Below are positions 27,979-47,927 of a DNA stretch of 64,000 bases, piece by piece. The notes beneath the pieces are model-generated. The model was given only the letters and a program-made list of their open reading frames with translations, did not search any database and was not told the origin of the DNA. A program made the translations under genes and the position numbers. This stretch comes from an uncultured Pseudomonadales bacterium. Its GTDB lineage: Bacteria > Patescibacteriota > Microgenomatia > UBA1400 > PJMF01. The stretch is from NCBI GenBank assembly GCA_964620965.1, contig CAZUHV010000003.1:12777-76776 (forward strand). The letters run 5' to 3'. Position 1 is the stretch's first letter. The number at the start of each line of letters is the position of its first letter.

Positions 27979-29187
27979 ATGAAGAAAATACTACATATTT
28001 TTATTGCTTTTATTTTTCTTAGTTTTGCATTTTTTGGTGGAACAAAACAGGCGTATGCACAATCTGCTTGTACTTCGGCAATCAGAGCAAGCTTTAGTAT
28101 GAGTAACTGGGCTCCTTCATATGGAGGATCTTTTTTGGCAGGAGTAGATGCTTCCCCAGTAAACCCAACATTTTCTGGTTTAACTGCTAACAGCCAGTAC
28201 GTATTAACTTGTCAAAAAAAACAACTGTTTGGTTGGAGTTCTAATTTGGCCTCTTGGAATTTTTCAGCTAATGCAAGTGGAACTGGGACTGTTAATATCT
28301 CTAACAACAGTGTCTGTTGGGAAGACAAAGATGATTATCGGTTAATGATTGTTATCCAGTCAAGCGGTGCCAGTTGTCTAGTCCAAGAATATGAGGTTCT
28401 TGATCAATCAGAGGGAGTACGGTGTGTTACTAAAAGTGCAACAAACGCAAGCGGTCAATCTGGATGTTTTGAACAAAATGAACAAATTAATTGGAGTTTT
28501 GAAGTCGTTAATGGAGACGGAACTCCATATACAGACGAATTAATGGTGAGAACAACAAATGTTTATGGTGGAGGACTTGGGGCAGGCAGGATATTCAGTA
28601 ACCCTTCTGGGGTCATTACCGGCACTGATACTGCGATAGAGCTATATGAAGATGTCCCTGAAGATTACAACACAAGTATTGTTTACACAGTGTTTGCTGA
28701 AGCGGATATTCAAAAACAAATTGCAAGTTGTACTTTATATGCAGGGAATGTAAAACAGGACATGTGTACAGAGGATGACTATGAAAATGGGGCCACTCCT
28801 GGAGTAGACACCTTTTCACTTTGTGACCAAATTCCTGAACAATTTGAGGAACAAAAAACAAGCTGTAAAATCTGTACTGAAGGTGAGGGTGAAAACGAAG
28901 CTAACAAAGGTGTCTGGACAGCAATAGGCTGTATAAAAAGAGAACCTCAAGCGATTATGCAAAGACTTATTACAGTTGGACTAGGTATTTCTGGAGGTGT
29001 CGCCCTTCTCACTTTCCTTGCTGCTGGATTCATCTTTAGTACCTCACAAGGAGATCCAAAAGCTTATGGAAAAGCCAAAGAAATGATGACCGCCGCTATT
29101 GTAGGAATAATTTTTGTAATATTTTCAGTAACAATACTACAATTCATAGGATATGAGGTACTCAAAATACCTGGATTTGGTGGATAA
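27979..29187 (+). CDS. Secreted Cys-rich protein with a C-terminal T4SS-pilin-like (VirB2/TrbC-type, CPR pilin family) two-helix domain
   Basis: The signal peptide ends AYAQ. An ectodomain of about 300 aa follows. The C-terminus ...GISGGVALLTFLAAGFIFSTSQGDPKAYGKAKEMMTAAIVGIIFVIFSVTIL matches the conserved core of the pilin paralogs at 40.7-44.3 kb. Confidence 0.6.
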   Translation: MKKILHIFIAFIFLSFAFFGGTKQAYAQSACTSAIRASFSMSNWAPSYGGSFLAGVDASPVNPTFSGLTANSQYVLTCQKKQLFGWSSNLASWNFSANASGTGTVNISNNSVCWEDKDDYRLMIVIQSSGASCLVQEYEVLDQSEGVRCVTKSATNASGQSGCFEQNEQINWSFEVVNGDGTPYTDELMVRTTNVYGGGLGAGRIFSNPSGVITGTDTAIELYEDVPEDYNTSIVYTVFAEADIQKQIASCTLYAGNVKQDMCTEDDYENGATPGVDTFSLCDQIPEQFEEQKTSCKICTEGEGENEANKGVWTAIGCIKREPQAIMQRLITVGLGISGGVALLTFLAAGFIFSTSQGDPKAYGKAKEMMTAAIVGIIFVIFSVTILQFIGYEVLKIPGFGG

Positions 29188-29189
29188 TT

Positions 29190-29645
29190 ATGAAACTAGT
29201 TTCTAACTTAAAAAAAATATCAATTGTATTACTGTTATTAATTTTAGTTTGCTTTGCATCTCCTGCTGTTTCCTTTGCCCAAGAAGAAAATGGTGAAGGT
29301 AATGTAAACATGCAAGGCACAATACTTGAAGGCCCAAATAATGGCTTTTTCGACGCCATGAACCCACTTAAAACAGAGGGCTCTCCTGTAGCAGAACAAC
29401 TTTCTACACCCGGTGGAATTGTTTCTAGAGTTTTGAACTTCCTCTTTCCACTTGCTGGACTAGTCTTATTTGTAATGTTAGTCTGGGGTGGTTTTGAAAT
29501 TTTATCAAAGTCATCTCAAGGTACAAAAGGGGTCGAAGCTGGCAGAAACAGAATTACCGCAGCAATCGTTGGGTTCATTTTACTTTTTGCTACCTATTGG
29601 ATGGCTCAAATTATTGAGATTGTCTTTGGAATTGTGATCGTTTAA
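29190..29645 (+). CDS. T4SS pilin-like protein (VirB2/TrbC-type, CPR pilin family)
   Basis: The signal peptide ends SFAQ. The core is ...LVLFVMLVWGGFEILSKSSQGTKGVEAGRNRITAAIVGFILLFATYW. It starts 3 nt after the preceding gene. Confidence 0.65.
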   Translation: MKLVSNLKKISIVLLLLILVCFASPAVSFAQEENGEGNVNMQGTILEGPNNGFFDAMNPLKTEGSPVAEQLSTPGGIVSRVLNFLFPLAGLVLFVMLVWGGFEILSKSSQGTKGVEAGRNRITAAIVGFILLFATYWMAQIIEIVFGIVIV

Positions 29646-31701: not shown

Positions 31702-31718
31702 TCTTCAAAACCTTTAGC

Positions 31719-32708: not shown

Positions 32709-32712
32709 AAAA

Positions 32713-33714: not shown

Positions 33715-33731
33715 AATCTAAACAGAACTTT

Positions 33732-35037: not shown

Positions 35038-35051
35038 CTTTTACCTCAACT

Positions 35052-36290: not shown

Positions 36291-36333
36291 GTATTACTTT
36301 TTTGCTTAACTTCCGCCTGTGCATTTTTACCTA

Positions 36334-37434
36334 TTAGCTTTTCTTTTGCCAACTCTTTCTTGCTAAAACTAACTGTTTTGTAGTCTCAAAAATAAATGCA
36401 TCACTCCCAGAACCAGATCCATATGATGCAACCAATATTTTTTTATTCTCTTTTGCTACTTCTAATGTATTTGCCAATCCCAACATACTCGCACCAGCAT
36501 ACGTATTTCCAATAGTCTTTACTAACAAACTAGGCTCTAATTTTTCTAATGGTATTTCCATTTTCTTTGCAAAAGCTGTTGGGAACTTTTCATTTGGAGT
36601 ATGAAACACAAAATAATCTATATCTGAAATTTTCAAACCAGTCTCTTGTAAAATTTGTGAAACAGAAAGAAAAATATGTTTAAAATATCCCGGTTCTGCG
36701 GTAAACCTTCCCGCATGTTCAGGATGTTCTTGTTGTGGTCTTCTCCAAAAATCAGGTGTATCTGTTGCAACTGAAGTTGTTGCTAATAACCTTGCAAGCA
36801 ATCTATTTTCTTTTTTACCACTCGATTCTGAACCTAAAATAAATGCCGCTCCACCGGCAGATGCTGTATATTCAAGTACATCTCCAGATTTTGCCTGAGC
36901 AGTATCTGCTCCTATCGCTAATGCATAATCAGAAAAACCAGAAAGTACATATAGAGCAGAAATTTGCAAAGCTTGAGTTCCAGCCTTACACGCAAACTGT
37001 AGGTCTGCTAAAGCAAGTGGTTTTACAAGATTACTAGAATTATCACTTACAAAGCCTTCATTTTCAATAAAACTGTCTGATGCAATTCCAAGTGCTTGAG
37101 CTACGACTGTTCCCGAAGGCTTAACTGCATACGGATGACTTTCACTCCCAATAAAAATTGCTCCAATTTGCTTTTTTACAGCGCCAACTAAGCCGCCTCT
37201 GTTACCAACTAAACCTTCTAACCTTTGGATCGCTTCAAATCCAGCCGCTGTTGCAATAGTAATAGTGTCTTCATCACTGTTTGGAACGCTTTTAGAAATA
37301 ACTCCTAAAGATGCGTAAATCTTTTGGGTTTCTTTTCCTTGTTTTTTGGCAATTTTTGCACCAGTTATTCTTTCCTTTGGAATTCTCAGTCCATACGAAA
37401 CAATGCCAACTGGTTTTTTACTAGTAAAAATCAT
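36334..37434 (-). CDS. Hydroxymethylglutaryl-CoA synthase (archaeal-type)
   Basis: Thiolase-like condensing-enzyme fold. Position between the thiolase and HMGR genes. ...GSESHPYAVKP... Confidence 0.7.
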   Translation of the reverse strand: MIFTSKKPVGIVSYGLRIPKERITGAKIAKKQGKETQKIYASLGVISKSVPNSDEDTITIATAAGFEAIQRLEGLVGNRGGLVGAVKKQIGAIFIGSESHPYAVKPSGTVVAQALGIASDSFIENEGFVSDNSSNLVKPLALADLQFACKAGTQALQISALYVLSGFSDYALAIGADTAQAKSGDVLEYTASAGGAAFILGSESSGKKENRLLARLLATTSVATDTPDFWRRPQQEHPEHAGRFTAEPGYFKHIFLSVSQILQETGLKISDIDYFVFHTPNEKFPTAFAKKMEIPLEKLEPSLLVKTIGNTYAGASMLGLANTLEVAKENKKILVASYGSGSGSDAFIFETTKQLVLARKSWQKKS

Positions 37435-37442
37435 ATATTTTT

Positions 37443-38735
37443 CTAAGATTTTGTAAGTTTTGCTCTTCCAAGTTTTTTGTGAGCACTTGCCAGAGTGTCT
37501 GTTGTTAGAGCAGCCAAACCAGAAATTTCTCCGGCAAGAGCTGCTATACCTGCCCCTATCGCTAAGTCTTCTGCTTTTACTTCAATTTGTTTTTTTATTG
37601 TTTTTCCATTATTTTTTTCTACTTCTTGTATGTCTTCTTGCCCTGAAAAATTTCTCAGCAGAAACCTTGCCTGAGTTTGTTTTGGTAACCAAGTTCCACC
37701 TCCTACACTTCCAACACTTACATTTGGTAAAGTGAGCGCTACATACAAAAAATCATCAACTACTTCAAAATGAACACTTGCTTCACTCCCTGCAACTACA
37801 TGTGCAATATCCTGGCCAGTTGCTAGATAAAAGGCTCCTAAAGCATTCGCTACGTGCATATTTTGAGCAAACGAACCTGCAACATTACTCCCAATCACAT
37901 TTTTTACTAAATGTGTTTTTACGAGTCTCTTTGCGTCAACTTTTAGTAAAGGCTCTACATCAATAAGCTTAATTTTTGTTTCGACTGTTACAAAATATCC
38001 ACGTCCCTTGATTCTATTGATCATTGAATCTTTTTTATCTGTACACACATTCCCGGAAACAGTTAGTAAAGAAACCCAAATAGAATCGGGAAGTTGACGC
38101 TTAAACTTATCCCAGGCATATGAAAGTGCAATTGTAACCATGTTCATCCCCATTGCCTGATCTGTATCAAATACAAATCGGTAGTACAAAAGCTTATCTC
38201 GCATATATGATTCATAACTTAAAAATTTTAGGTGAGAACTCGTTTCTTCACAAAATTGAGCAAAAAGTGAGATGTTTTTTGAAAAATATTCCTCAAAAAT
38301 GACCGCGTCCTCTATTGAACCGCACTCGAAAACTACCGATCTACTCATGCCAATTTTCTTAACAATCACGGTTGTTTTTCCAGAATTTAAAACTTTAACT
38401 CCTCGTTGTATCGAAGCAACAAGTGCTCCTTCTGTTGTAGCAAGAGGAATAAAAAATGTCTTTTTTTCTTCTGATTTATCAGATTTAGTTGCATCAGAAA
38501 TATAAACTGATGTAACTGTGACTGGACCAGCAACTCCAACAGGAACCTCTACAGACCCAATATAATTTTCGCAGTTTTTTGTTCCAACTTCCTGAGGTAA
38601 ACTCGTCTCAAACAAAACATTCAGTTCTTTTTTAGAAATATCTGTAGCATCACAAATAAATTCTTGCCTTAATTCGCGTTTTTGATCTTCAGATAGTGTT
38701 TTGTCTCTAATATACAAAGACTGAGTTTTCGTCAC
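37443..38735 (-). CDS. Hydroxymethylglutaryl-CoA reductase (class I type)
   Basis: ...TTEGALVASIQRG..., DQAMGMNMV and GTVGG motifs. Confidence 0.85.
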   Translation of the reverse strand: MTKTQSLYIRDKTLSEDQKRELRQEFICDATDISKKELNVLFETSLPQEVGTKNCENYIGSVEVPVGVAGPVTVTSVYISDATKSDKSEEKKTFFIPLATTEGALVASIQRGVKVLNSGKTTVIVKKIGMSRSVVFECGSIEDAVIFEEYFSKNISLFAQFCEETSSHLKFLSYESYMRDKLLYYRFVFDTDQAMGMNMVTIALSYAWDKFKRQLPDSIWVSLLTVSGNVCTDKKDSMINRIKGRGYFVTVETKIKLIDVEPLLKVDAKRLVKTHLVKNVIGSNVAGSFAQNMHVANALGAFYLATGQDIAHVVAGSEASVHFEVVDDFLYVALTLPNVSVGSVGGGTWLPKQTQARFLLRNFSGQEDIQEVEKNNGKTIKKQIEVKAEDLAIGAGIAALAGEISGLAALTTDTLASAHKKLGRAKLTKS

Positions 38736-38839
38736 AAAACATTAGTCGGAAAAACAAACAATATTCACGCAAAATTTAAATCATTACTCAAAACTAATTA
38801 AGTAAAAAAAACCAATTTTCACTTTGTTTTCAGCGAATA

Positions 38840-39514
38840 CTATGAAAAAAGTTCTTTAAAAGCATCAAAAAGTCGTGCGTTTTTTAACATTAAAACTGTC
38901 CAAGGAGCTAATAAAAATTCTTTTTCAGAAACAATGACTTGTACCGTTGGTGTTTTTTCTTTTAATTCCCGAGTATCAAGAATAGCAAGCGTTTGTTCTG
39001 CGGCTATGTACTCCATTGTTGATACTGTTGAATATAGTTCTTTGAAATCAACCCAGCACACTTCACTTACTTCTTCCTTATTTATATGAAGCTGTTGGTT
39101 TAATAAACCAACATACACTTGGTCTATTTCGTGTTCACCATAGATATCATTTCCATATGCTTTATAAGAAAACTTAAAAGTTGGCTTTACAGAAACTCCT
39201 TTTAATCCTAACTCTTTATCCAGCCTTCTGTTTACACAATCATAAAAGGTTTCAGTTGGCCAAGCGTTTCCACAGGCAGAGTTTGCCCACCATCCGGCAC
39301 CAACAATTTTTTTATCACTTCTTTTTTGTAATAATACTTCACCCTTTGAATTAAATAACCAAACAGAAATTGCTAAGTGCAGTTTTGAAGGGTATTTATG
39401 AGCCTCAAATTTATCTTCTGGACCAATAAATGTGCCATCTGGCTCGACCAAACTTACTTCATCTTTTGCTATGAGTATCTCTCGTATTGTTTTATTTTGT
39501 GTGTCTGTATTCAT
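38840..39514 (-). CDS. idi: Isopentenyl-diphosphate delta-isomerase, type 1 (Nudix fold)
   Basis: ...SVWLFNSKGEVLLQKRS...WANSACGNAWPTE...RRLDKELGL. Confidence 0.7.
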   Translation of the reverse strand: MNTDTQNKTIREILIAKDEVSLVEPDGTFIGPEDKFEAHKYPSKLHLAISVWLFNSKGEVLLQKRSDKKIVGAGWWANSACGNAWPTETFYDCVNRRLDKELGLKGVSVKPTFKFSYKAYGNDIYGEHEIDQVYVGLLNQQLHINKEEVSEVCWVDFKELYSTVSTMEYIAAEQTLAILDTRELKEKTPTVQVIVSEKEFLLAPWTVLMLKNARLFDAFKELFS

Positions 39515-39519: not shown

Positions 39520-39858
39520 CTAATCCTTATAGACAACTGTAAACCTCAATAATAAATACAATAACAAGATTTGCCAATAAATACAAAAAAAAGTAATAAC
39601 ATTGGAAATAAAGCTGATCCAATCACAAGCAAAAAAGTGAGTTGCAGAACAACTGAAAAGCAGTTGCACTGTTGGAACCAAAACCGATTTCCAAAAAACT
39701 GTTAAAAAGCTCAGAAAAAAACTAGGGAGCAGTGTCATCCAAACAAATAGCTTTTGCTTCACAAGAGACTGCATTGTTTGATATGGGTGCAATAAAAGAC
39801 CAGTTGTAATTTGTCCTAAAGAATACACTACAGAAAAAAAGACTCTTCTTGTTTTCAT
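39520..39858 (-). CDS. Hypothetical membrane protein (possible anti-sigma component)
   Basis: 112-aa ORF with 3-4 TM segments. It is translationally coupled (4-nt overlap) to the upstream small gene and the ECF sigma gene. Confidence 0.35.
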   Translation of the reverse strand: MKTRRVFFSVVYSLGQITTGLLLHPYQTMQSLVKQKLFVWMTLLPSFFLSFLTVFWKSVLVPTVQLLFSCSATHFFACDWISFISNVITFFCIYWQILLLYLLLRFTVVYKD

Positions 39859-40046
39859 AGTTTTTTAACGACCTCAACAATAACTGCAGAAAATATAGAA
39901 ATGAGGGATAAACTTAACAATGTATTTTCACCTATAAAAGAGGTAATTGGATCAAATGCTTTTGGAATAACTCTAGAGTTATAGAGCTTTTTTTGCAGTA
40001 CTGCTTCTTGTTGTAATTTTTTTAAAAAATCATCATTCATACTCAA
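39855..40046 (-). CDS. Hypothetical small single-TM protein (possible anti-sigma factor)
   Basis: 63-aa ORF lying 4 nt downstream of the ECF sigma gene. Confidence 0.3.
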   Translation of the reverse strand: MSMNDDFLKKLQQEAVLQKKLYNSRVIPKAFDPITSFIGENTLLSLSLISIFSAVIVEVVKKL

Positions 40047-40049
40047 AAC

Positions 40050-40574
40050 TTAAATTACTAACCATAGTTCCTTAAATTCTTTGCGAGCCCTAAAAAGATC
40101 TGACTCTATAGATTTGCTACTCTTCCCTAATTCTTTTGCAATGACAGCAACTTTCTTTTCATCTGCATATTTCAAAAGTAGTAATTCACTATAGTCTGCT
40201 CGCATATGTGAAAGCACTTGTCTCACCTTTTGAGAAACTTCATCACTATCAGAGATTTGATTTATCGGAATTAACTCAGAGAGCGGAATTGTTTTTAATG
40301 CTTTTTTTGCGTACTTCTTCCTAAAGTAATCTGATATCTCATGCCGAGCAATAGAGTTCATCCAAGTCCAAATACTTGATTTTCCCAAAAAAAGTGGCAA
40401 ATGCTTAAGACAATTTAAAAATGTCTGTTGAGTAATTTCTTCAGCATCTTTTTTATTAGAAACCTTGACCTCAACAATTCGTAGTAACCTAATAAAATAA
40501 AGGTCAAACCAAGTTTTAACCGCAGATTCATCACCAGTTTTTAGCTGAGCTATAAGTTCTGTATCTTCTATCAT
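40050..40574 (-). CDS. RNA polymerase sigma factor, ECF subfamily
   Basis: Region 2 (...DLYFIRLLRIV...ITQQTFLN...) and region 4 helix-turn-helix (YSELLLLKYADEKKVAVIAKELGKSSKSIESDLFRARKEFKEL). Confidence 0.65.
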   Translation of the reverse strand: MIEDTELIAQLKTGDESAVKTWFDLYFIRLLRIVEVKVSNKKDAEEITQQTFLNCLKHLPLFLGKSSIWTWMNSIARHEISDYFRKKYAKKALKTIPLSELIPINQISDSDEVSQKVRQVLSHMRADYSELLLLKYADEKKVAVIAKELGKSSKSIESDLFRARKEFKELWLVI

Positions 40575-40672
40575 TGATAGTTATTCTACATCAAAATTGA
40601 ATAAATATTCATCTTCCAGATCAAAGGCGATACTTTTCATCAAGTAAAGCCTGCTATATAATAGTCATATAT

Positions 40673-41047
40673 ATGTTTTTTGGAATAATACCTACAGTAT
40701 TTGCTCAAGAGGAAGTCAGCCCTTGTGGTGCTGGCAACGGAGGTATTAATCTTGGAAACTGTCTCAAACTTTCTGATAGTACTAGAGTTAGTGCTACCTA
40801 CGATACACCAGCATTTTTAGTTAATCTTATTATTAGTAACTTATTTGTTGTTGCTGGAGTAATTTTTTTCTTAATGTTAATTGTTGCAGGATTCAAGTTT
40901 ATTACTGGTGGCCAAAAAGGTGCTGAAGAAGCAAAAAATATTATAACTACTTCTCTAATCGGTTTTATTATTATGTTTGCAGCCTACTGGATTATCCAAA
41001 TTGTTGCATTGTTAACTGGTATTACAATTCCTGGAGTAAGCACCTAA
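40673..41047 (+). CDS. T4SS pilin-like protein, paralog 1 of 8
   Basis: Short leader MFFGIIPTVFAQ. Core LFVVAGVIFFLMLIVAGFKFITGGQKGAEEAKNIITTSLIGFIIMFAAYW. C-terminus GITIPG. Confidence 0.6.
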   Translation: MFFGIIPTVFAQEEVSPCGAGNGGINLGNCLKLSDSTRVSATYDTPAFLVNLIISNLFVVAGVIFFLMLIVAGFKFITGGQKGAEEAKNIITTSLIGFIIMFAAYWIIQIVALLTGITIPGVST

Positions 41048-41048
41048 T

Positions 41049-41456
41049 ATGACATTTTTTAAAATTCCAACCGTCTACGCTCAAACTGATCCCAACGAAC
41101 TTGTCGGAGATTTGGAAATTCCTAAGGGTGTAGATCTCATAAACCAAGATGCTGGTGGAATTGGAGTAATTTTATTTATTTCAAACATGATCAAGTTTGT
41201 CATTATTCTTGGAGGAATCTGGGCATTAATTAACATTATTTTTGCTGCATTTGCATATCTTACAGGAGGTGGGAAAGCAGACTCACACACTAAAGTTAAA
41301 GATAGATTTACTATGAGTATTATCGGGCTTATCTTAATGATTGTAGCGTATACAGTCGCTGCACTGGTTGGACAAATTTTCTATGGAGATCCAAACTTTA
41401 TTTTAAACCCAACATTAGAAGCTATTGCACAACCAACACCGACCCCAACACCATAA
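41049..41456 (+). CDS. T4SS pilin-like protein, paralog 2 of 8
   Basis: Leader MTFFKIPTVYAQ. Core ...ILGGIWALINIIFAAFAYLTGGGKADSHTKVKDRFTMSIIGLILMIVAYT...FYGDPNFILNPTLEA. C-terminus is a PT tail. Confidence 0.6.
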   Translation: MTFFKIPTVYAQTDPNELVGDLEIPKGVDLINQDAGGIGVILFISNMIKFVIILGGIWALINIIFAAFAYLTGGGKADSHTKVKDRFTMSIIGLILMIVAYTVAALVGQIFYGDPNFILNPTLEAIAQPTPTPTP

Positions 41457-41457
41457 T

Positions 41458-42057
41458 ATGAAAGTACTACTAATAAAAACACTTAGAAACTTTATACTTA
41501 CCTTCTTTACAGGACTTCTGTTTGCAGGAGTATTTTTTTCGGCAACTCTTATTTCTCCAAAACCTACTCTTGCTGCTTGCAGATATGCAGGCCAATGTGA
41601 TGATAATAGTATTTGTAGATGCCGAGAAGATTTAAATCCAATCGCTTGTTACTACATGGTTCGGTATGGAGATCCAGAGTCTGCATTAGTTCATAGTGAC
41701 GAAGCTTGTGGTTCTGCAATTATCGGTGGGGTTGAACCACCAGATGCAGTTGCAGCAATTAACCAGCAATCTGGCGGAGATATTGGCTTAATTTTCTTTA
41801 TTTCCAGAATAATAAATTTTGCCAATATTATAGCTGGGATCTTGGTCATGATTAATTTTGTCTACTCAGGATTTCTGTATGTTACAGGGGCTGGAAATGC
41901 TTCAAATATGTCTAAAATTAACGAAAGAATGATGTGGAGTGTTGTTGGGATATTAATGATCGTTGGATCTTATACACTTGCAGCAATTTTTGGATTGGTA
42001 TTCTACGGAGACCCAACATTTGTTATCAACCCAACTTTAACAGGAGCACTTAACTAA
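41458..42057 (+). CDS. T4SS pilin-like protein, paralog 3 of 8, with a Cys-rich N-terminal insertion
   Basis: The start is taken at MKVLLIKT; the ORF track starts at 41425, overlapping the previous gene. A 6-Cys segment CRYAGQCDDNSICRCREDLNPIACYY...EACGS precedes the pilin core. The C-terminus FYGDPTFVINPTLTG is shared with paralog 2. Confidence 0.55.
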   Translation: MKVLLIKTLRNFILTFFTGLLFAGVFFSATLISPKPTLAACRYAGQCDDNSICRCREDLNPIACYYMVRYGDPESALVHSDEACGSAIIGGVEPPDAVAAINQQSGGDIGLIFFISRIINFANIIAGILVMINFVYSGFLYVTGAGNASNMSKINERMMWSVVGILMIVGSYTLAAIFGLVFYGDPTFVINPTLTGALN

Positions 42058-42087
42058 TTACTTGGTATATAATAGAAAAGAATACAT

Positions 42088-42465
42088 ATGATACTACCTA
42101 CACTTATCGCACAATTTGGGGAAGGATTTAAATCTCAATCCCCTCTTACAGACGGAGCAGAACTAGATCCAGGAAAAAACCTTGAACTTATTCTTTCTAA
42201 TGTCTTTGGATTTTTCACTATTATTGGAGGAATTTTCTTTATCGTATACTTTTTAATTGCAGCAATGGAATGGATTACCTCTGGTGGTGATTCTGGGAAA
42301 CTAACCAACGCAAGAAACAAAATGATGCAAGGAATTCTTGGTTTAGTTATTTTGGTTGCTGCATATGGAATACTTGGAATCATTGGTAGCTTAATTGGTA
42401 TCAACCTACTAACTCCTGCAGCACTTTTGGATACAATCACTCCAGGACAAGGAGGAGGAAACTAA
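42088..42465 (+). CDS. T4SS pilin-like protein, paralog 4 of 8
   Basis: Leader MILPTLIAQ. Core IGGIFFIVYFLIAAMEWITSGGDSGKLTNARNKMMQGILGLVILVAAY. Confidence 0.65.
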   Translation: MILPTLIAQFGEGFKSQSPLTDGAELDPGKNLELILSNVFGFFTIIGGIFFIVYFLIAAMEWITSGGDSGKLTNARNKMMQGILGLVILVAAYGILGIIGSLIGINLLTPAALLDTITPGQGGGN

Positions 42466-42470
42466 ACCCT

Positions 42471-42905
42471 ATGAAAATAACAAAAAAAATATCAGCTCTC
42501 GCACTATCTGCAACAACATTTTTAGCCATTACCCTCCCTGTTTTTGCACAAACCGAAGGCACCGGAATTACTAATCCTGTGATTGGAGGACTTGGAGATA
42601 ATCCAGAAACAGCTGCCACTGGAGAACTAGCAACAAACTATTTCGTAGATATTTGGAATACACTTATTAGTATAGGTGGATTGGTAGTCATTGTTATGTT
42701 CCTTTGGGGAGCTCTCGAATGGATTACCGCAGGCGGGGATTCTGGAAAAATAGAAAAAGCTCGAAACAAAATTACTCAAGCTATCATAGGTTTAGTTATT
42801 TTAGTTAGCTCATTTGTAATTCTTGGCTTTATCAGTCAAGTGTTCTTTGGAGATGAGTTCTCTATCTTGAATTTAACATTCACAAGGCCAGGAGGAACTG
42901 AATAA
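42471..42905 (+). CDS. T4SS pilin-like protein, paralog 5 of 8
   Basis: The signal peptide ends PVFAQ. Core WGALEWITAGGDSGKIEKARNKITQAIIGLVILVSSF. Confidence 0.7.
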   Translation: MKITKKISALALSATTFLAITLPVFAQTEGTGITNPVIGGLGDNPETAATGELATNYFVDIWNTLISIGGLVVIVMFLWGALEWITAGGDSGKIEKARNKITQAIIGLVILVSSFVILGFISQVFFGDEFSILNLTFTRPGGTE

Positions 42906-43342
42906 TGAAAAAATTACTTATAGCTTTTTTAATTGGTTTAGGTATTTTCTTTAGCTATACAACGTTGGCAAGCCACTCTTATTCACAAGTATTTGCACAA
43001 GCAGATGTCCAACTTGATTTTGGGGGCATTGCAAAAGATAAAGAAGTCATTGGCACTGCAGATTATAACCCAGCAGACGGTGGGGCTGGTTTTGGAGCTC
43101 TAATTGGAAGAATTTTAAACATCGTAATAGTAATCGCAGCACTCATGCTATTCTTAATGCTTCTTTGGGGTGGCTTTGAATGGATTACCTCTGGTGGTGA
43201 TAAAGGTAAAGTTGAAAAAGCAAGAAACAGAATCACTCAGTCAATTATTGGAATGATTGTTTTGGCGGCAACTATTGCAATTTTTGCAATACTACAAACA
43301 GCACTTGGATTTGAAGTGCTTACCTTTACTGCAGGAGCATAA
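42905..43342 (+). CDS. T4SS pilin-like protein, paralog 6 of 8
   Basis: The signal peptide ends QVFAQ. Core WGGFEWITSGGDKGKVEKARNRITQSIIGMIVLAATIA. TAATG overlap with paralog 5. Confidence 0.7.
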   Translation: MKKLLIAFLIGLGIFFSYTTLASHSYSQVFAQADVQLDFGGIAKDKEVIGTADYNPADGGAGFGALIGRILNIVIVIAALMLFLMLLWGGFEWITSGGDKGKVEKARNRITQSIIGMIVLAATIAIFAILQTALGFEVLTFTAGA

Positions 43343-43385
43343 ATACTAAAACATAGCGCCTTATTTAAAATAAAAAATTACAAAC

Positions 43386-43414
43386 TTGCAGTATGTATCA
43401 AGTACAAGTATAAT
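43386..43414 (+). promoter_or_regulatory. Near-consensus sigma-70-type promoter (TTGCAG-17 nt-TATAAT) upstream of pilin paralog 7
   Basis: TTGCAG at 43386-43391, a 17-nt spacer, then TATAAT at 43409-43414. The RBS AGGAAA lies about 8 nt before the ATG at 43463. Confidence 0.45.
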
Positions 43415-43462
43415 TAAATAATAAGTAGTCAGTAATAAACTGAAAAGTAATAAAGGAAACAT

Positions 43463-43840
43463 ATGAGAAACAAACTCAATGGTTTAGCACTAAGTGCAGC
43501 AGCATTTGTCACTGCAGTTCCAGCTGTGTTTGCACAAAACACAAATGTTAGTGACATCGAAACTCCAGACTTCTTCTTTACAGATGTTGGTGTTTTAATC
43601 AACAAGGCACTTAACTTCGTTATGGTTCTTGGTGCTTTATTAGTATTCATGTACCTCATCTGGGGTGGTATTGAATGGATTACCTCTGGTGGTGATAAAG
43701 GTAAGACAGAGTCTGCACGTAACAAGATTACAGCTGCAGTTCTCGGTTTGATCGTCCTCGCAGCTGCATGGGCAATCTTAGGATTAGTCCTCAAATTCTT
43801 AGGTGCAGGAGACTTGAACTCATTAATCGATCAACTTTAA
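43463..43840 (+). CDS. T4SS pilin-like protein, paralog 7 of 8 (candidate major pilin)
   Basis: The signal peptide ends AVFAQ. Core WGGIEWITSGGDKGKTESARNKITAAVLGLIVLAAAWA. Codon usage is distinct and C-ending-rich. The gene has its own promoter and a strong terminator. Confidence 0.7.
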   Translation: MRNKLNGLALSAAAFVTAVPAVFAQNTNVSDIETPDFFFTDVGVLINKALNFVMVLGALLVFMYLIWGGIEWITSGGDKGKTESARNKITAAVLGLIVLAAAWAILGLVLKFLGAGDLNSLIDQL

Positions 43841-43867
43841 TACAAATTAATTTTTGATTTTAAAAAA

Positions 43868-43890
43868 GCCCCTCTTTTGAGGGGCTTTTT
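43868..43890 (+). terminator. Rho-independent terminator after pilin paralog 7
   Basis: gcccctc-tttt-gaggggc hairpin followed by ttttt. Confidence 0.65.
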
Positions 43891-43924
43891 GGTGTAAAAA
43901 ATAATGATATAATCAACTCTAGAT

Positions 43925-44347
43925 ATGATACTAGAAAAAAAATTAAATAAACTCGAAAAACTTTTTACTGTTATAGTTGCGTATCTATACTCAACCTCTC
44001 CTGCGTTTGCACAAACTGTATCTTGGTCTGGAGTCTGTGTTGGTGGAGCTGGAAACGATGTTGCAACTATTCAAGGACTTGAATGTTTAATTGCAAATGT
44101 CTTTACAGTTATCATTACCCTTATTGGTCTAGCCGCATTTGTAATGCTTATTGTTGGCTCAGTTAGATGGCTCATGTCTGGCGGAAATTCTTCTGCTTTA
44201 GATAAAGCAAGAAGTACTATGACATACGCAATCATTGGAATTGTTGTTGCACTCAGTGCCTTTATTGTCTTAAACCTGATTTCTGGATTTACCGGAGTAG
44301 ATACTATTCAAGAATTTAGAATTCCTACTTCAGACGAAGGCTTGTAA
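43925..44347 (+). CDS. T4SS pilin-like protein, paralog 8 of 8
   Basis: The signal peptide ends PAFAQ. A Cys pair (GVCVGG...GLEC) precedes core LIGLAAFVMLIVGSVRWLMSGGNSSALDKARSTMTYAIIGIVVALSAF. Confidence 0.6.
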   Translation: MILEKKLNKLEKLFTVIVAYLYSTSPAFAQTVSWSGVCVGGAGNDVATIQGLECLIANVFTVIITLIGLAAFVMLIVGSVRWLMSGGNSSALDKARSTMTYAIIGIVVALSAFIVLNLISGFTGVDTIQEFRIPTSDEGL

Positions 44348-44405: not shown

Positions 44406-47400
44406 GTGCACATAAAGTTTTTAAAACTGCTAGCAACACAGTTGTCTATTTTGTTCTTCTTAGCAATGTCTCTTGTTATTCCGAAATTTGCTCTTGCGTC
44501 TGAACTAATTGGAACACATCTTGGTGAAGGAGACGTTGGTTATCAAATTAATATCATTAGAAACGTTCTTATTCCGAACGGCTTAGAACCTGGAAGCCCT
44601 GTCACTGTCATGGTTCCTGTTACCATGATTCAAGACAGCCAACTAGGAACTGTCCAAGAGTTGGCAAATGCTGTGAGTTCTGCTGGATACTTTCCAATTG
44701 TGAGAATAAATGGAGTTTGTTCAAATTTTTCTGCTGAAACAGGAAAGGGACCGGGAGAAACTGTAGATGCTGTCAGAAGCATTTTTGGTTCTCAGGCACT
44801 CATTGTTTGGGGAAACGAAATCAACAACAAAGAAAATGAGTGTAATGACTGGCAAAAATATCTTTCCGACTATATTCAAATCGAAGGCAGACCAAACGTT
44901 AGCCCTGCTGCACTAGATTATTACATGGGTAACCCCGACTTTACCGTAAGCAAGATGTTTGCAGATACTCCAGGTATGGAGGCAATTTTCAATACATCCC
45001 CACGAGCTGCGAATGCTTATGGTTGTGTTGGTTCAAATAGCGCAGACTGTGATCCTAGTTCAACCACAACTCAAGAAGTTGGATATGGATCTGTAGGAAA
45101 CCCTTTTTATTTAACTGAGTTTTCTTTGTCTCCAGGAGGGAATGCTAGTGATGCTCCAGACACAGATATTGCAAAAGTCCTAGAATTTATTGCATCTCGA
45201 GCTGGAGAAACAGGAGCTCAAAAAGTTACACCACTTGTAAGAAATGTTTGTAATAATGACAGCGCTTGGCTTATCTACATCAACGGAAAACTGTTTACAC
45301 CTCAAGGGAATGAAGTCAGTGAAAACTGTGAGGGAATTTCTGGTGGTTCTGGATATGACTTAAGTAGGTATCCCGAATATGGAGTTGATGAAACGAAATC
45401 ATACATTACTCCAATAAGAAACTTAATAGACGGAGCAAGTACTCAATACACAGTTGCAGCACTTAGAGAAGAATTAGCAAAACAAGGATATGAAGCATAT
45501 TGTGCCAGTGAAAATATCAAAATTGATCCTAAATATGACACAGAAGAACTAATCAATAGGTATTTTGAATTATACCCAGATGGAGTTCAAATACTTGAAG
45601 CTGACTCTGTTGAGACTTTAAGCACTACCAATGCTCAGTATCCCCTTTGGCGTGACGTTAGTAATAAACAATTTTTACTAACTTCCCTAGAAGAATATTT
45701 TGGATTTAAAGATATTTATCAATCAGATCCTGGAGCAAGTGTCCTTACCAGTGCTCCTATAAATTCCCTACTCTCTGAGCCTCAAATGTGTGTACAAGGC
45801 TGGAAAAATTTAGTTGCACAAGAACTCGCTTGTGAACGTTTACAAAATCCAGGAGAATGTGAGCTTTTTACCAGACCAATTCCAGGAACCAGCTATACTG
45901 TTAAAACATTATTAGATGCTCTTAAAGCATATGAACCAGGATATAGAGAAGGAATGGCAACTAAAGGTTGTACAAACCTAGTAGCTGGGGATCGTCTGTT
46001 AAACCCAAAACTATTTGAGGGACTTATTAATACTCCAACATATTTTGACAGAGCGTATAGATACGGCTTTATTGTTGCTGTTATTCATGCAAAAAGCCCA
46101 TTGACTGATTCTGGAAATATCGCAGCAAGAATCTTCAACTTTTTCACAGAAAGCACCAGAACAGAAGAACCAAGAGACGAAGTATTGGTAGCTGCATTTA
46201 AATTACCAGATATAGCAACAAACAAATTCCAAGATGAGACTAACGGTGTACAGTTTTGGGATGATCCACTCTCTTTAACAAGATTAGTTCTTTCTAATCA
46301 TGAAAGAAATGAATTGCATGCTAAAGATTTTGATAAAACAAATGCTGTACGGTCTCGTACAGAAACTGCAGCAGATTTATTTGAAAATGCAAATGACGCA
46401 AAAGTTCAAAACTCTGGTAGTAAAATCTTCTGTTCTATTTCTTCTGAAGATGGAGATGGAAACCAAGTCATCACAAAAGCAAGTACTTCATGTAGAAATA
46501 ACATGACAAAAGCACTCACTGATATTATCAATGGAAATGCACAAGGATGTGGAGACGTTGAAGCTGTCAATGTTATTAAAGATATTGCAGGACTTGATAA
46601 TCCAGAAGAAAAATATGGAAGAGTTTTTAATGGCGACAATGGTTTAGAAGTAATTCTTAATCTATTTAAAGGTGATAAAACTCATCCAGCTGCTGGAAGT
46701 GGACAACAAACCGATCCGCAACGTGCTGAAACTAATGATCCTGCAGAAAAACTCAAATCTTTATTTACCCTCTCAAAAGACACTTGGGGTTCACGCGAAG
46801 GTGGCACAACTGTAGATTTTTATGTAGTCTACCCTATGGGATTTGAGCTTAATGCAGTAGAAGATGCTATGAAGGGTGCTTTCTTTACGAAAGCGCAAAT
46901 TGCTGCTCTTGATAGTCAACAAATTGTAGATGGATTTCCACTTACCGGACAAAGCATGAGTCTTTCTGCTGGTAGTGATGGATTTGAATATATTGATCCA
47001 GAAAAAACTGCCGCTGGAGATTGTGGAACAGAACAACCTGTTGATCCAATTACAGGTCTTCCAGTTGGAACTCCAGTTCCAAAGCCGTGTACCCAAGATG
47101 TAAGTGTTACCCTTTCTCAAGAAAGTGGTGGAGTTGGAATTCTTGGTGCAAAACTTGGCTTCTGGATGAGAAAAATTCAAACTCAACTCAGTTCTAGAAC
47201 AGGTGAAGCATGGAAATACTTTTCTTCTTGCAAAACAACTGAAGAATTTATGTTAGGAAAATGTACTGGAGGTAGCTTCGCAGGTTCTGATGATAATACT
47301 GGAGATGGATCTCCGGGAACCTCTGGAGATGATCTTGTTTCTGTTGCTCAATGTAATGGAGGCCCAAGAATAACTGCAGGAGGAGATGCTGAACATGTTT

Positions 47401-47927
47401 CTACTACTGGAACTGGAGCCTGTGCAGGAAAAGAAACAAATGAGTATGTTCCAAGTATTCATAACGTTTCAAATTGGAAAAGTCCTGGTGATGCTGTAAT
47501 CGATTGTGAAGACCTCTACTCCTATGCCGATTGTACATATCCTGAGTCACTTGTTCAGAACCCTGTTAATAGTTCTGGAAAATTTGTTGAGAATGGTAAT
47601 GTCACTGCATGCCAGTATGTGGTAAACAAAGCAAAAGAACTTGGAGTTAGCCCTCGCCTAGCTCTTGCAATGTGGGGAGAAGAATCTGGGTTTAGTCACT
47701 ATAGAGTTCCAGATTTAGGGGTTATTTCACAACCAGCTCAAGACCTTGAGGCTCAAGTAACTAGCTTTGCAAACACTTTAAAGTCATACAGTAATTATAT
47801 AGACTTTTTGGAAGCTTATTCTGGTGAAGAAAGAGGAGATAACGACCCAAGTCCAAATCAATTCTGTAATAATCTGTACTTCCTAGCAAGACTAAAAGTC
47901 TTCTATGACTCTCTAGGACCTAGATAG
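44406..47927 (+). CDS. Large secreted protein of unknown function (1173 aa), in the T4SS-like locus
   Basis: Signal peptide MHIKFLKLLATQLSILFFLAMSLVIPKFALA. No TM segments after it. Cys-containing. No family recognised. Confidence 0.55.
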   Translation: MHIKFLKLLATQLSILFFLAMSLVIPKFALASELIGTHLGEGDVGYQINIIRNVLIPNGLEPGSPVTVMVPVTMIQDSQLGTVQELANAVSSAGYFPIVRINGVCSNFSAETGKGPGETVDAVRSIFGSQALIVWGNEINNKENECNDWQKYLSDYIQIEGRPNVSPAALDYYMGNPDFTVSKMFADTPGMEAIFNTSPRAANAYGCVGSNSADCDPSSTTTQEVGYGSVGNPFYLTEFSLSPGGNASDAPDTDIAKVLEFIASRAGETGAQKVTPLVRNVCNNDSAWLIYINGKLFTPQGNEVSENCEGISGGSGYDLSRYPEYGVDETKSYITPIRNLIDGASTQYTVAALREELAKQGYEAYCASENIKIDPKYDTEELINRYFELYPDGVQILEADSVETLSTTNAQYPLWRDVSNKQFLLTSLEEYFGFKDIYQSDPGASVLTSAPINSLLSEPQMCVQGWKNLVAQELACERLQNPGECELFTRPIPGTSYTVKTLLDALKAYEPGYREGMATKGCTNLVAGDRLLNPKLFEGLINTPTYFDRAYRYGFIVAVIHAKSPLTDSGNIAARIFNFFTESTRTEEPRDEVLVAAFKLPDIATNKFQDETNGVQFWDDPLSLTRLVLSNHERNELHAKDFDKTNAVRSRTETAADLFENANDAKVQNSGSKIFCSISSEDGDGNQVITKASTSCRNNMTKALTDIINGNAQGCGDVEAVNVIKDIAGLDNPEEKYGRVFNGDNGLEVILNLFKGDKTHPAAGSGQQTDPQRAETNDPAEKLKSLFTLSKDTWGSREGGTTVDFYVVYPMGFELNAVEDAMKGAFFTKAQIAALDSQQIVDGFPLTGQSMSLSAGSDGFEYIDPEKTAAGDCGTEQPVDPITGLPVGTPVPKPCTQDVSVTLSQESGGVGILGAKLGFWMRKIQTQLSSRTGEAWKYFSSCKTTEEFMLGKCTGGSFAGSDDNTGDGSPGTSGDDLVSVAQCNGGPRITAGGDAEHVSTTGTGACAGKETNEYVPSIHNVSNWKSPGDAVIDCEDLYSYADCTYPESLVQNPVNSSGKFVENGNVTACQYVVNKAKELGVSPRLALAMWGEESGFSHYRVPDLGVISQPAQDLEAQVTSFANTLKSYSNYIDFLEAYSGEERGDNDPSPNQFCNNLYFLARLKVFYDSLGPR

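Follow-up and report, generated by a model that had tools for sequence, protein, structure and literature searches.

Eight consecutive ORFs occupy 40673-44347 on the + strand of the window, the 64-kb stretch of DNA analysed here (Table 1). They are real same-strand genes of 124-199 aa, as the preliminary description had held. The gaps between them measure 1, 1, 30, 5, -1, 120 and 84 nt from gene 1 to gene 8; the earlier figure of 0-30 nt thus survives for the tightly packed part of the array, including the one-base TAATG overlap of genes 5 and 6, but not for the two longer gaps.

Table 1. Coordinates of the pilin array, its sequence signals and the surrounding genes (positions in the window).
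Feature	Position	Strand	Details
VirD4/T4CP-like ATPase	9125-11458		
Satellite pilin pair	27979..29645	+	PF18895 32.3 and 31.7 bits
Satellite 1	27979-29187	+	402 aa
Satellite 2	29190-29645	+	151-aa pilin
Conserved divergent trio	39520..40574	-	
Membrane protein	39520-39858	-	112 aa; syntenic in 53 loci
Candidate anti-sigma protein	39855-40046	-	63 aa, single TM
ECF-type sigma factor	40050-40574	-	Sigma70_r2, Sigma70_r4_2, Sigma70_ECF; syntenic in 56 loci
-10 box TATAAT of gene 1	40657..40662	+	within invariant CTATATAATA; 10 nt 5' of gene 1 ATG
Pilin paralog 1	40673..41047	+	124 aa; PF18895 26.3 bits vs cutoff 26.6
Pilin paralog 2	41049..41456	+	135 aa; PF18895 25.9 bits
Pilin paralog 3	41458..42057	+	199 aa; PF18895 17.8 bits, below threshold yet best match
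Pilin paralog 4	42088..42465	+	125 aa; PF18895 43.4 bits
Pilin paralog 5	42471..42905	+	144 aa; PF18895 41.3 bits; PF04956 TrbC 17 bits, below threshold
Pilin paralog 6	42905..43342	+	145 aa; PF18895 36.5 bits
Gene 7 promoter and 5' UTR	43386..43462	+	alignment with six relatives
Gene 7 -35 TTGCAG	43386-43391	+	followed by 17-nt spacer
Gene 7 -10 TATAAT	43409-43414	+	
Gene 7 UTR hairpin TCAGT..ACTGA	43429-43443	+	
Gene 7 Shine-Dalgarno AGGA	43454-43457	+	
Pilin paralog 7	43463..43840	+	125 aa; PF18895 43.3 bits
Intrinsic-terminator-like hairpin AAGCCCCTC-TTTT-GAGGGGCTT, then T-run	43866..43895	+	directly 3' of gene 7
Pilin paralog 8	43925..44347	+	140 aa; PF18895 35.7 bits
Secreted protein	44406..47927	+	1173 aa, signal peptide; syntenic in 30 loci
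Soluble protein, acidic/basic disordered tail	47974..49104	-	376 aa; syntenic in 35 loci
VirB6/DotA-like polytopic membrane protein	49248..50915	+	555 aa; VirB6/DotA-like fold; syntenic in 31 loci

[quoted passage not shown] PF18895 (T4SS_pilin) is the best Pfam match of all eight genes, of satellite 2 and of the C-terminus of satellite 1; five of the eight array genes pass its gathering threshold (26.6 bits), while genes 1, 2 and 3 fall below it. The feature lies far beyond chance: its lowest Pfam E-value is 4e-11, and the complete array is found again in 80 further genomes. A search with gene 7 found 859 homologs; among the 120 listed, all carry PF18895 and several also PF04956 (TrbC/VirB2). 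The PF04956 threshold, that of VirB2 proper, is reached by no array gene in Pfam (best 17 bits vs 27.9). The NCBIfam model NF045849, a mycoplasma-ICE pilin-like family, is matched by eight of the ten paralogs (eight array and two satellite genes), all below its cutoff of 40; gene 7 scores 37.8 bits (E 1e-9, 73/80 model positions).

The common C-terminal core described earlier is likewise present in every array gene, as a pair of hydrophobic helices with a short polar loop between them, and both alignment and Pfam recover the same core in the two satellites. A single Gly is invariant across the alignment of all ten paralogs. The succession of acidic N-region, helix, neutral-to-basic loop and helix is that of VirB2, and the charge distribution and Cys pairs are consistent with an N-out topology. 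The eight paralogs are small membrane proteins of VirB2 architecture, with an extracytoplasmic acidic N-region, a transmembrane helix, a cytoplasmic loop, a second transmembrane helix and a short tail. The block WIT[SA]GGDxGK...ARN, described earlier for several of the genes, is confined to genes 4-7. Paralog identity within the window is 22-60%, and the N-regions of different paralogs cannot be aligned to each other. The AlphaFold2 model of gene 7 is a helix-loop-helix hairpin (pLDDT 79.7); a helical hairpin is uninformative in fold comparison, which explains why a PDB fold search with the pilin returned nothing significant (best relevant hit, an A. pernix conjugation pilin, E 2.4). A profile search with the pilin found no VirB2 among PDB sequences.

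The preliminary description attributed to all eight genes a cleaved leader ending P-x-[VL]-[FY]-A-Q with an invariant +1 Gln, and these claims stand only in part. The motif as written occurs in genes 1, 2 and 7; relaxed to [VLA]-[FYI]-A-Q it covers seven of eight, gene 3 (PTLAA|C) being the exception. Full signal peptides precede the sites of genes 3, 5 (LPVFA|Q), 6, 7 (PAVFA|Q) and 8 (SPAFA|Q, an exact PAxAQ). Genes 1, 2 and 4 have none, with only 11, 11 and 8 residues before the Gln (MTFFKIPTVYA|Q in gene 2, MILPTLIA then Q in gene 4), and a longer leader is precluded by in-frame stops in genes 2 and 4 (in gene 2, four codons 5' of the ATG) and by a conserved -10 box in gene 1. The +1 Gln is not invariant: it is Gln in 37, Ala in 26 and Glu in 11 of 116 gene 7 orthologs, and Gln in 71 of 77 orthologs of paralog 8. 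An N-terminal pyroglutamate formed from this Gln, as suggested earlier, would be hypothetical; cleavage at A|Q has a nearer parallel in Agrobacterium VirB2, which needs its PAxAQ processing motif both to lose the signal peptide and to cyclise head to tail (PMC4074166).

Loss of the signal peptide is recurrent among related loci, and the A|Q motif is often retained. At most 17 residues are possible before the site in 40 of the 69 loci with a paralog 1 ortholog, many paralog 6 orthologs have no signal peptide (for example L006, L011, L039 and L064), and orthologs of paralog 2 with a full one occur in L007 and L006. Genes 1, 2 and 4 could be read as decaying, non-functional copies whose A-Q is a relic of a lost signal peptide, as their leaders of 8-11 residues and the scores of genes 1 and 2 just under the Pfam threshold might suggest. 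That is highly improbable, given that the reading frames are uninterrupted and kept in 52-75 genomes, that group 4 conserves its short N-terminus (in 63/75 no more than 17 residues fit before AQ|FG, and TLIAQ|FG is the best-conserved N-terminal segment) and that the start of gene 1 is fixed by its conserved -10 box.

Sequence signals suggest that the array is divided. No Shine-Dalgarno site lies upstream of gene 1; among its 69 orthologs, TAnAAT ends 4-14 nt before the start codon in 44 and an SD-like site occurs in none. With its -10 box so close to the ATG, the gene 1-3 unit is predicted to yield a leaderless or near-leaderless mRNA, and the TAAtATG junction of genes 1 and 2 suggests translational coupling. 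TATAAT boxes also lie 14 nt upstream of gene 4 and, without an SD site, 11 nt upstream of gene 8; gene 5 is preceded by a GGAGG Shine-Dalgarno site. Judged by such signals, the array is probably transcribed in about four units. Genes 1-3 would form a leaderless one with stop/start junctions, genes 4-6 a second and gene 7 a third of its own; gene 8 would belong to the fourth, possibly shared with the 1173-aa secreted protein.

Gene 7 stands apart from its neighbours. Alignment with six relatives shows that TTGAC[GT], GGTATAATT, both hairpin arms and the Shine-Dalgarno site are kept upstream of it. Of 77 related loci, 33 have a perfect-stem hairpin between genes 7 and 8, equivalent to the one that follows gene 7 here. 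Median gaps flanking gene 7 are 88 and 71 nt, and those inside genes 1-6 are at most 18 nt. Its core, with WITSGGDKGK, is better conserved (0.62) than that of any other array gene. In a gene of only 125 codons, codon usage is an outlier among 54 ORFs, with NNC/(NNC+NNT) of 0.60 vs a window median of 0.25, ATC/Ile of 0.67, GGT/Gly of 0.83 and the highest GC3 of the 54. Genes of this type are duplicated in many genomes, with one to three copies per genome. A conserved promoter and Shine-Dalgarno site, a separate terminator, deviating codon usage, the best-conserved core and frequent duplication together make gene 7 the probable major, abundant structural subunit.

Comparison with related genomes, which had been proposed earlier, finds the whole array in 80 of them, with variation in the copy number of the gene 7 type. 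In nearly all of these loci, best-match labels ascend as 1-2-3-4-5-6-7(-7)-8, and identity to the orthologs of the nearest genome (L002) is 58-82%. Each paralog is an orthologous group that keeps its array position across up to 80 species-level genomes. Within these groups the N-regions of the eight array genes have mean identities of 0.27-0.46, and each position has its own N-terminal signature kept between genomes. Paralog 1 has a conserved Cys pair (PCGAG...LGNCLKLSD), paralog 3 a Cys-rich N-domain of ~67 aa (6 Cys) whose CxYxGQCxNNxxC is kept in orthologs, and paralog 8 a conserved WSGVCVGG...DVATIQGLECLIANVF with a Cys pair; paralog 2 ends in a C-tail of the form GDPxFxxNPTL. The array turns out to be a long-established collection of distinct subunits in fixed order and not a recently diversifying adhesin family. 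Of the two ideas offered in the preliminary description, a composite pilus is thereby favoured, and ancient collinear one-to-one orthologs with conserved N-regions speak against adhesin diversification.

The same evidence bears on whether the paralogs are interchangeable variants, serving as alternative major subunits or adhesins that would widen host range or evade recognition, as has also been proposed for virB2 paralogs of Bartonella and Anaplasma. Such variants would account for the low identity between paralogs, their unalignable N-regions and the changing copy number of gene 7, and PMC12102498 suggests this reading for Patescibacteria. We nevertheless consider it improbable: positional orthologs occur in invariant order, position-specific motifs and Cys pairs are conserved within groups, the signals of high expression fall on one gene only, and the close spacing of stops and starts implies joint production of genes 1-6, not a choice among them.

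The surrounding genes offer candidate partners. The VirB6/DotA-like protein, a conserved neighbour, carries a Cys-containing domain outside the cytoplasm in addition to multiple transmembrane helices, and its signal peptide ends in SFA|Q. Between its gene and that of the 1173-aa protein sits the 376-aa gene, whose product has no family match in Pfam or NCBIfam. The 1173-aa protein, a candidate cell-wall-active or tip-associated partner, has no Pfam or NCBIfam match of its own; among its homologs, precomputed annotation places a lysozyme-like domain (PF18896 SLT_3) at the C-terminus of eight, GH5 in one and a C-terminal PF18895 pilin module in one, and neither end of the protein encoded here aligns to these domains. 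Upstream, the sigma/anti-sigma/membrane trio comprises possible regulators of the array. Satellite 1 joins a signal peptide and a ~300-aa N-domain with 12 Cys to a C-terminal pilin core, and a large-plus-small satellite pair lies 5' of the array in about 19-20 related loci. A link to a secretion apparatus is supported by the VirB6-like neighbour and by the VirD4/T4CP-like ATPase elsewhere in the window. No VirB4 was found anywhere in the 64 kb, and in none of the 80 related loci does one lie up to 10 kb from the array, which makes the tie to a T4SS motor indirect.

VirB2 homologs exist in T4SSs where no pilus is seen, and the array may likewise form no filament but a membrane channel, stator-like or lipid-handling assembly with the VirB6-like protein, 'pilin' being a family name only. 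Consistent with this are the several paralogs that have no signal peptide, the missing VirB4 and, in the portions of the literature considered, the lack of any observed pilus in Patescibacteria and the general lack of pili in related monoderm T4SSs. We hold it to be unlikely, though less so than the other alternatives. The VirB2 architecture and VirB2-like A|Q site argue against it, as does one subunit geared to very high expression, as a polymer subunit would be; Cys-rich extracytoplasmic N-domains of up to ~300 aa fused to the pilin core suggest display outside the membrane.

The region is a chromosomal VirB2-like pilin operon of Patescibacteria, of the Microgenomatia type (Pacebacteria/Woesebacteria), in which the host is an ultrasmall bacterium. 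With a probability of about 60%, we interpret it as encoding a composite pilus or pseudopilus, built on a VirB6-like platform from one major VirB2-like subunit and several minor ones. A mechanism can be sketched from two analogies, the R388/T-pilus system and the minor pilins known from type IV pili and type II secretion. The pilins would insert into the membrane, those with signal peptides being cut at A|Q by signal peptidase I and those without inserting through the hairpin while the acidic N-tail crosses the membrane. On the VirB6-like platform, paralogs 1-6 and 8, present at low abundance, could then make up a heteromeric complex for priming, the tip or the base, standing in for the missing VirB5, and pilin 7 would polymerise into a pilus or short pseudopilus that crosses the wall and touches a host cell for uptake or delivery. 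The division into major and minor roles, the heteromers and the insertion route of the members without signal peptides are all inferred.

Type IV pili and type II secretion pseudopili also encode one abundant subunit together with conserved low-abundance paralogs, minor subunits thought to prime assembly or cap the fibre. Their fold and processing are unrelated to those of the array, which has no class III G|F leader, PilD or N-terminal alpha1 with Glu5, and the resemblance concerns a possible working mode, not family membership. The virB2 expansions of Bartonella, Anaplasma and Rickettsia share tandem virB2-like genes with divergent exposed regions, read there as antigenic or host-interaction variation within a lineage, whereas here the groups are ancient, orthologous and conserved in order. 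The Mbov_0395 family (NF045849) of mycoplasma ICEs is the best named NCBIfam relative of most paralogs, and its source, a monoderm system of the MPF-FATA type, agrees with the ancestry proposed for the T4SS of Patescibacteria; every score stays below its cutoff, the operon here is chromosomal and not in an ICE, and we know of no eight-gene array in the ICE version.

With VirB2/TrbC (PF04956; A. tumefaciens T-pilin, R388 TrwL) the array shares small size, two hydrophobic helices, a short cytoplasmic loop, both termini outside, an associated VirB6-type platform and a site ending A|Q, gene 8 having the PAxAQ of that family (PMC4074166). It differs in missing the PF04956 threshold, in having eight paralogs and no VirB5 where a classical VirB2 system has one pilin gene and VirB5, and, from Gram-negative systems, in its monoderm host and its three members without a long signal peptide; for the array, cyclisation and pilus formation are hypothetical.

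Tandem arrays of divergent VirB2-like pilins have been published, and the kind is therefore already known. Two papers describe 441 arrays of 2-11 genes in Patescibacteria, especially abundant in Microgenomatia (Quinonero-Coronel et al. 2025, PMC12102498), and an essential pilin series in the saccharibacterium Southlakia epibionticum ML1 (Wang et al. 2023, PMC10633639). The present array resembles the published ones in PF18895, tandem same-strand order, phylum and low within-array identity (~25% on average in PMC12102498). The ML1 array lies inside a VirB4-containing T4SS cluster, whereas here a divergent VirB6-like gene is the closest partner that can be recognised. The passages of the two papers considered here make no mention of fixed-order orthology, a single high-expression member or members without signal peptides. 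New here are the fixed paralog order in relatives, a probable major pilin in gene 7, the recurrent loss of signal peptides and the VirB6/DotA-like neighbour.

Proteins encoded by the eight consecutive plus-strand ORFs of the array, and by the satellite pair upstream of it, are members of the T4SS pilin family, as the preliminary description had proposed from sequence motifs. PF18895 (T4SS_pilin; gathering threshold 26.6 bits) is the best Pfam match for all ten. Genes 4–8 and both satellite proteins score above the threshold, and genes 1, 2 and 3 score below it, the first two by less than 1 bit; these three align across the same core despite their scores. The related family PF04956 (TrbC/VirB2; threshold 27.9 bits) reaches its threshold in none of them, the top match being gene 5 with 17.0 bits (E 0.007) and the rest being weaker or absent. 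Similarly, NF045849, the NCBIfam model for pilin-like conjugal transfer proteins of mycoplasma ICEs, is matched by eight of the ten paralogs, always below its cutoff (37.8 bits for gene 7, cutoff 40). With gene 7 as query, 859 homologues were retrieved from the database; PF18895 is present in all 120 among the matches listed, and PF04956 is precomputed for several of these that are 62–71% identical to gene 7. A tblastn of gene 7 against plasmids gave chance-level matches only, and no VirB2 was among the PDB sequences matched by its profile.

Membership in the type IV pilins would imply a class III leader ending in G|F/M, a Glu5, a hydrophobic N-terminal alpha1 helix and processing by PilD. None of the eight proteins carries a short basic leader ending in G|F/M; where leaders are short, they are non-basic and terminate in A|Q, unlike class III signal peptides, and no type IV pilin family appears among their Pfam matches.

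Features of the array and its surroundings (positions in the window; PF18895 scores in bits; SP, predicted signal peptide)
Feature	Position	Strand	Remarks
tRNA gene	5291-5363	-	Rfam match
VirD4/T4CP-like ATPase, 777 aa	9125-11458	-	DUF87, TrwB_AAD_bind, TraG-D_C matches
ATP-dependent DNA ligase, 631 aa	19783-21678	-	all three DNA_ligase_A domains
Satellite protein, 402 aa	27979-29187	+	32.3; pilin core C-terminal
Satellite protein, 151 aa	29190-29645	+	31.7
Isoprenoid gene run	29745-39514	-	directly upstream of array
ECF-type sigma factor, 63-aa single-TM ORF, 112-aa membrane protein	39520-40574	-	divergent from array
TATAAT upstream region, gene 1	40657-40672		box 10-14 nt before start codon; no Shine-Dalgarno
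Gene 1, 124 aa	40673-41047	+	26.3; no SP
Gene 2, 135 aa	41049-41456	+	25.9; no SP
Gene 3, 199 aa	41458-42057	+	17.8; SP
TATAAT upstream region, gene 4	42069-42087		box 10-14 nt before start codon; no Shine-Dalgarno
Gene 4, 125 aa	42088-42465	+	43.4; no SP
Gene 5, 144 aa	42471-42905	+	41.3; SP
Gene 6, 145 aa	42905-43342	+	36.5; SP
Gene 7, 125 aa	43463-43840	+	43.3; SP
GC-rich hairpin and T-run	43866-43895		after gene 7; equivalent in 33/77 loci
TATAAT upstream region, gene 8	43907-43924		box 10-14 nt before start codon; no Shine-Dalgarno
Gene 8, 140 aa	43925-44347	+	35.7; SP
Secreted protein, 1173 aa	44406-47927	+
VirB6/DotA-like protein, 555 aa	49248-50915	+	4.9 kb downstream of array
Four large ORFs	51040-62200		1004, 402, 740 and 1481 aa

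The array described at the outset is real, and several of its details were imprecise. Alignment of the eight proteins with the 151-aa satellite and the C-terminus of the 402-aa satellite bears out the shared core, with a single Gly as its invariant residue, and confines the WIT[SA]GGDxGK...ARN block to genes 4–7. Intergenic gaps measure 1, 1, 30, 5, -1, 120 and 84 nt, so that the reported spacing of 0–30 nt does not hold on either side of gene 7; genes 5 and 6 do share the TAATG overlap. The strict leader P-x-[VL]-[FY]-A-Q is found in genes 1, 2 and 7 and not in the other five, and a relaxed [VLA]-[FYI]-A-Q matches seven genes, gene 3 being the exception with PTLAA|C. The start of gene 3 was placed at ATG 41458 because the resulting TAAtATG junction matches that between genes 1 and 2. 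Antisense ORFs at 41081-41290, 42135-42440 and 43429-43794 were discarded as coding-strand shadows, and an Rfam scan detected no RNA family in the array region, its sole match in the 64-kb window being one tRNA gene.

Hydropathy places two C-terminal hydrophobic helices of ~30 residues each, joined by a short polar loop, in all eight proteins, and by the positive-inside rule their termini are predicted to lie outside, which is the architecture of PF18895. An AF2 model of gene 7 (pLDDT 79.7) consists of a signal-peptide helix, a disordered stretch of ~24 residues and a helix-loop-helix whose helices (42-74 and 79-112) have pLDDT above 90. Foldseek found nothing significant in the PDB for this model, with an A. 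pernix conjugation pilin at rank 5 (E 2.4); such a search is uninformative because helical hairpins match many unrelated proteins. The N-regions are acidic (net charge -1 to -6) and the inter-helix loops neutral to basic (0 to +2). Cysteines occur in even numbers in the N-regions of gene 1 (2), gene 3 (6) and the 402-aa satellite (12), and a Cys pair is conserved in gene 8. This pattern of charges and cysteines fits the VirB2 topology, with both termini outside and the loop inside.

Comparison with related genomes points to an ancient fixed set of pilins rather than a recent diversification. A scan for EWIT[SA]GGD with one genome per species yielded 152 confirmed relatives, from which 80 loci were kept, and a core HMM identified 621 pilin ORFs in these and the window, each labelled by its best-matching window paralog. 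Most loci contain 6–10 tandem copies, and the labels ascend 1-2-3-4-5-6-7(-7)-8 in nearly every one, the sole exceptions being two loci in which a large-type gene follows position 8. A large-plus-small pair like the satellites often lies a few kb upstream, and precedes the array in about 20 related genomes. Orthologues in the nearest genome are 58–82% identical to their window counterparts, compared with 22–60% among the window paralogs themselves (pairwise local), and mean identity within the eight orthologous groups is 0.27–0.46 for N-regions and 0.44–0.62 for cores. N-terminal signatures are also kept across genomes: PCGAGxGGINLGNCLKLSD at position 1, the Cys-rich CxYxGQCxNNxxC at position 3, LPTLIAQFGxG at position 4 and WSGVCVGG..DVATIQGLECLIANVF at position 8. 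Because orthologue order, identity and these signatures are conserved, eight distinct roles are favoured over interchangeable variants. The same observation argues against the earlier suggestion of adhesin diversification, as orthologues retain position, order and N-terminal signature across nearly all of the 80 loci.

Where informative, the database labels of the relatives are Pacebacteria/Paceibacterota, Woesebacteria and Microgenomates. Many public MAGs with the array are labelled 'uncultured Pseudomonadales bacterium', 'Vitreimonas sp.' or 'candidate division TM6 bacterium' (CP011212.1, locus L064); those labelled outside Patescibacteria are probably errors of taxonomy label rather than true occurrences.

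Several sequence signals single out gene 7 as the probable major subunit. It is the outlier in codon usage among the window's 54 ORFs, in a small sample of 125 codons: NNC/(NNC+NNT) is 0.60 against a window median of 0.25 (sd 0.10), and ATC/Ile (0.67), GGT/Gly (0.83) and GC3 (0.34) are each the highest in the window. The 120-nt spacer 5' of the gene is alignable with six relatives, and three elements are conserved in it: TTGAC[GT] and, beyond a spacer, GGTATAATT, which together make up a near-consensus promoter; the hairpin TCAGT..ACTGA in the UTR; and a Shine-Dalgarno site, AAGGA(G). Median gaps across loci are at most 18 nt within genes 1–6, 88 nt before gene 7 and 71 nt after it. Its core is the best conserved among the eight array genes, and the gene is duplicated in many genomes. 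Together these signals suggest an expression hierarchy with gene 7 above the others.

The TATAAT boxes close to genes 1, 4 and 8 suggest leaderless or near-leaderless mRNAs. Upstream of gene 1, an invariant CTATATAATA lies 10 nt 5' of the ATG with no Shine-Dalgarno site; such a box occurs in 44 of 69 orthologues, and a Shine-Dalgarno-like site upstream in none of the 69. A leaderless mRNA is therefore predicted for gene 1, which fixes the short N-terminus of pilin 1. An alternative, non-canonical start farther upstream (in-frame INIHLPDQRRYFSSSKACYIIVIY..., signal-peptide-like) was ruled out, as the conserved -10 box falls inside that stretch.

Contrary to the preliminary description, not every gene has a leader long enough for a signal peptide: genes 1, 2 and 4 have only 11, 11 and 8 residues before the Gln and no predicted signal peptide, and in-frame stops lie 4–6 codons upstream of genes 2 and 4. 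Among the 75 orthologues of gene 4 (group 4), 63 have room for no more than 17 residues ahead of AQ|FG, and some begin at the mature part; the same limit applies to 40/69 orthologues in group 1 and 18/52 in group 2. Group 6 often lacks the signal peptide in other genomes and has it in the window's copy. The recurrence of short N-termini in groups 1, 2, 4 and 6 across genomes indicates that signal-peptide loss is recurrent and tolerated, and argues that they are not annotation artefacts of the window's genome.

Despite this loss the A|Q segment, the predicted cleavage site with Gln at +1, is often kept, and no N-terminal stretch of group 4 is better conserved than TLIAQ. Of the 621 pilin ORFs, 119 have the pattern P.{2,3}AQ within their first 60 aa, compared with 13 of the 773 other ORFs. 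Nearly all orthologues in group 8 have the +1 Gln (71/77); its supposed invariance does not extend to the gene 7 group, where Q accounts for 37, A for 26 and E for 11 of 116.

Beyond the pilins, the divergent trio is kept beside the array in 53–56 genomes: the ECF-type sigma factor (56 loci), the 112-aa membrane protein (53 loci) and the 63-aa ORF, a possible anti-sigma factor. Control of the array by the ECF sigma factor was considered and set aside: the link is unproven because the conserved element 5' of gene 1 resembles a housekeeping -10 box, TATAAT, and not an ECF-type -10. On the other side of the array, the 1173-aa secreted protein (30 loci), a 376-aa protein (35 loci) and the 555-aa VirB6-like protein (31 loci) are syntenic with it. 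The last is a polytopic inner-membrane protein with a fold match to solved VirB6. The 1173-aa protein in the window has no domain recognisable in Pfam or NCBIfam, and neither database supports an SLT/GH-like reading of its 'MWGEESGF' and 'WGNEINN' segments. Among its homologues, SLT_3, a lysozyme-like domain, is C-terminal in eight, GH5 occurs in one, and P0289 has a T4SS_pilin module at its C-terminus. A wall-degrading role is a family-level hint only, because the termini of the window protein do not align to the SLT_3 and GH5 regions of these homologues. Across the family the central part is conserved and the termini are swapped.

VirB4 is absent from the window and from 10 kb around all 80 related arrays, where P-loop ORFs of at least 450 aa are tRNA synthetase, IF-2 or proteins without a Pfam match. 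The T4CP-like ATPase is 29 kb away from the array; its NCBIfam TraD and CD1115 matches all fall short of the cutoff, and none of the genes beside it is recognisable as a T4SS component. The 402-aa satellite protein, 11 kb upstream, fuses a ~300-aa Cys-rich (12 Cys) extracellular domain to a pilin core and may act as an adhesin presented by a pilin anchor.

CHAP hydrolases accompany Gram-positive T4SSs. Of the four large ORFs downstream, which have almost no family matches, the 1481-aa one has a Gly-rich TM segment and a C-terminal CHAP match below cutoff (22.6 bits, cutoff 26); the other three are charged and helical. None of the four is syntenic with the array in related loci. The isoprenoid run encodes HMG-CoA reductase, an HMG-CoA-synthase-like protein, thiolase, three GHMP-kinase/decarboxylase genes, NUDIX proteins and undecaprenyl-diphosphate synthase; in L002 and L044, the nearest relatives, parts of this run share synteny with the array. 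The DNA ligase is of the ATP-dependent type, here in a bacterial genome.

The best-supported reading is that the array encodes a multi-subunit VirB2-type fibre or pseudopilus on a VirB6-like platform. The major subunit would come from gene 7, the other paralogs would provide minor subunits specific to their positions, and the pilins would assemble on the 555-aa protein. By analogy with known systems, heteromers may form, the subunits may be processed and a filament may exist.

A bolder joint reading, unlikely to hold in full, is a heteromeric T4SS-type pilus, to our knowledge undocumented for any T4SS. Here the seven position-specific minor pilins beside gene 7 would take over the priming or tip role of the absent VirB5, the platform would be a highly divergent VirB6, and the pilin genes would be uncoupled from virB4. 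Some minor pilins would have dropped the Sec signal peptide and retained the VirB2-type A|Q; its retention without a signal peptide would imply a processing or recognition step independent of signal peptidase I, for example a cyclisation-type transpeptidation or a dedicated peptidase.

The array of pilin paralogs as such is already in the literature. Across 383 Patescibacteria assemblies, Quinonero-Coronel et al. 2025 (PMC12102498) count 441 VirB2 arrays, each of 2–11 pilin genes. These are especially common in Microgenomatia and Saccharimonadia, identity within an array averages 25%, and a role in adaptation to different hosts is proposed. Their definition, at least two pilin genes of low mutual identity in tandem or with one non-pilin gene between, describes the eight contiguous window genes as well. 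Wang et al. 2023 (PMC10633639) place a predicted pilin series inside the essential T4SS cluster of Southlakia epibionticum, and a 2025 review counts six divergent VirB2-like pilins there and regards a pilus in a monoderm as a possibility. The one patescibacterium that has been both cultivated and tested cannot grow on its host without the T4SS and its pilin series.

If the array does encode distinct subunits in a fixed set, one of them the major pilin, host-range variation is no longer the question; the new one is how a multi-subunit fibre or channel assembles in a monoderm without VirB5. The analysis supplies targets for it: gene 7 for imaging and antibodies, and the signal-peptide-less members with their A|Q site for processing. 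VirB6 is reported to be scarce in Microgenomatia, and the VirB6-like gene is a candidate for it. For the A|Q site itself, the closest precedent is the Agrobacterium-type VirB2, whose PAxAQ motif is needed for signal-peptide removal and cyclisation (PMC4074166); in a likeness of sequence only, gene 8 reads exactly SPAFA|Q.
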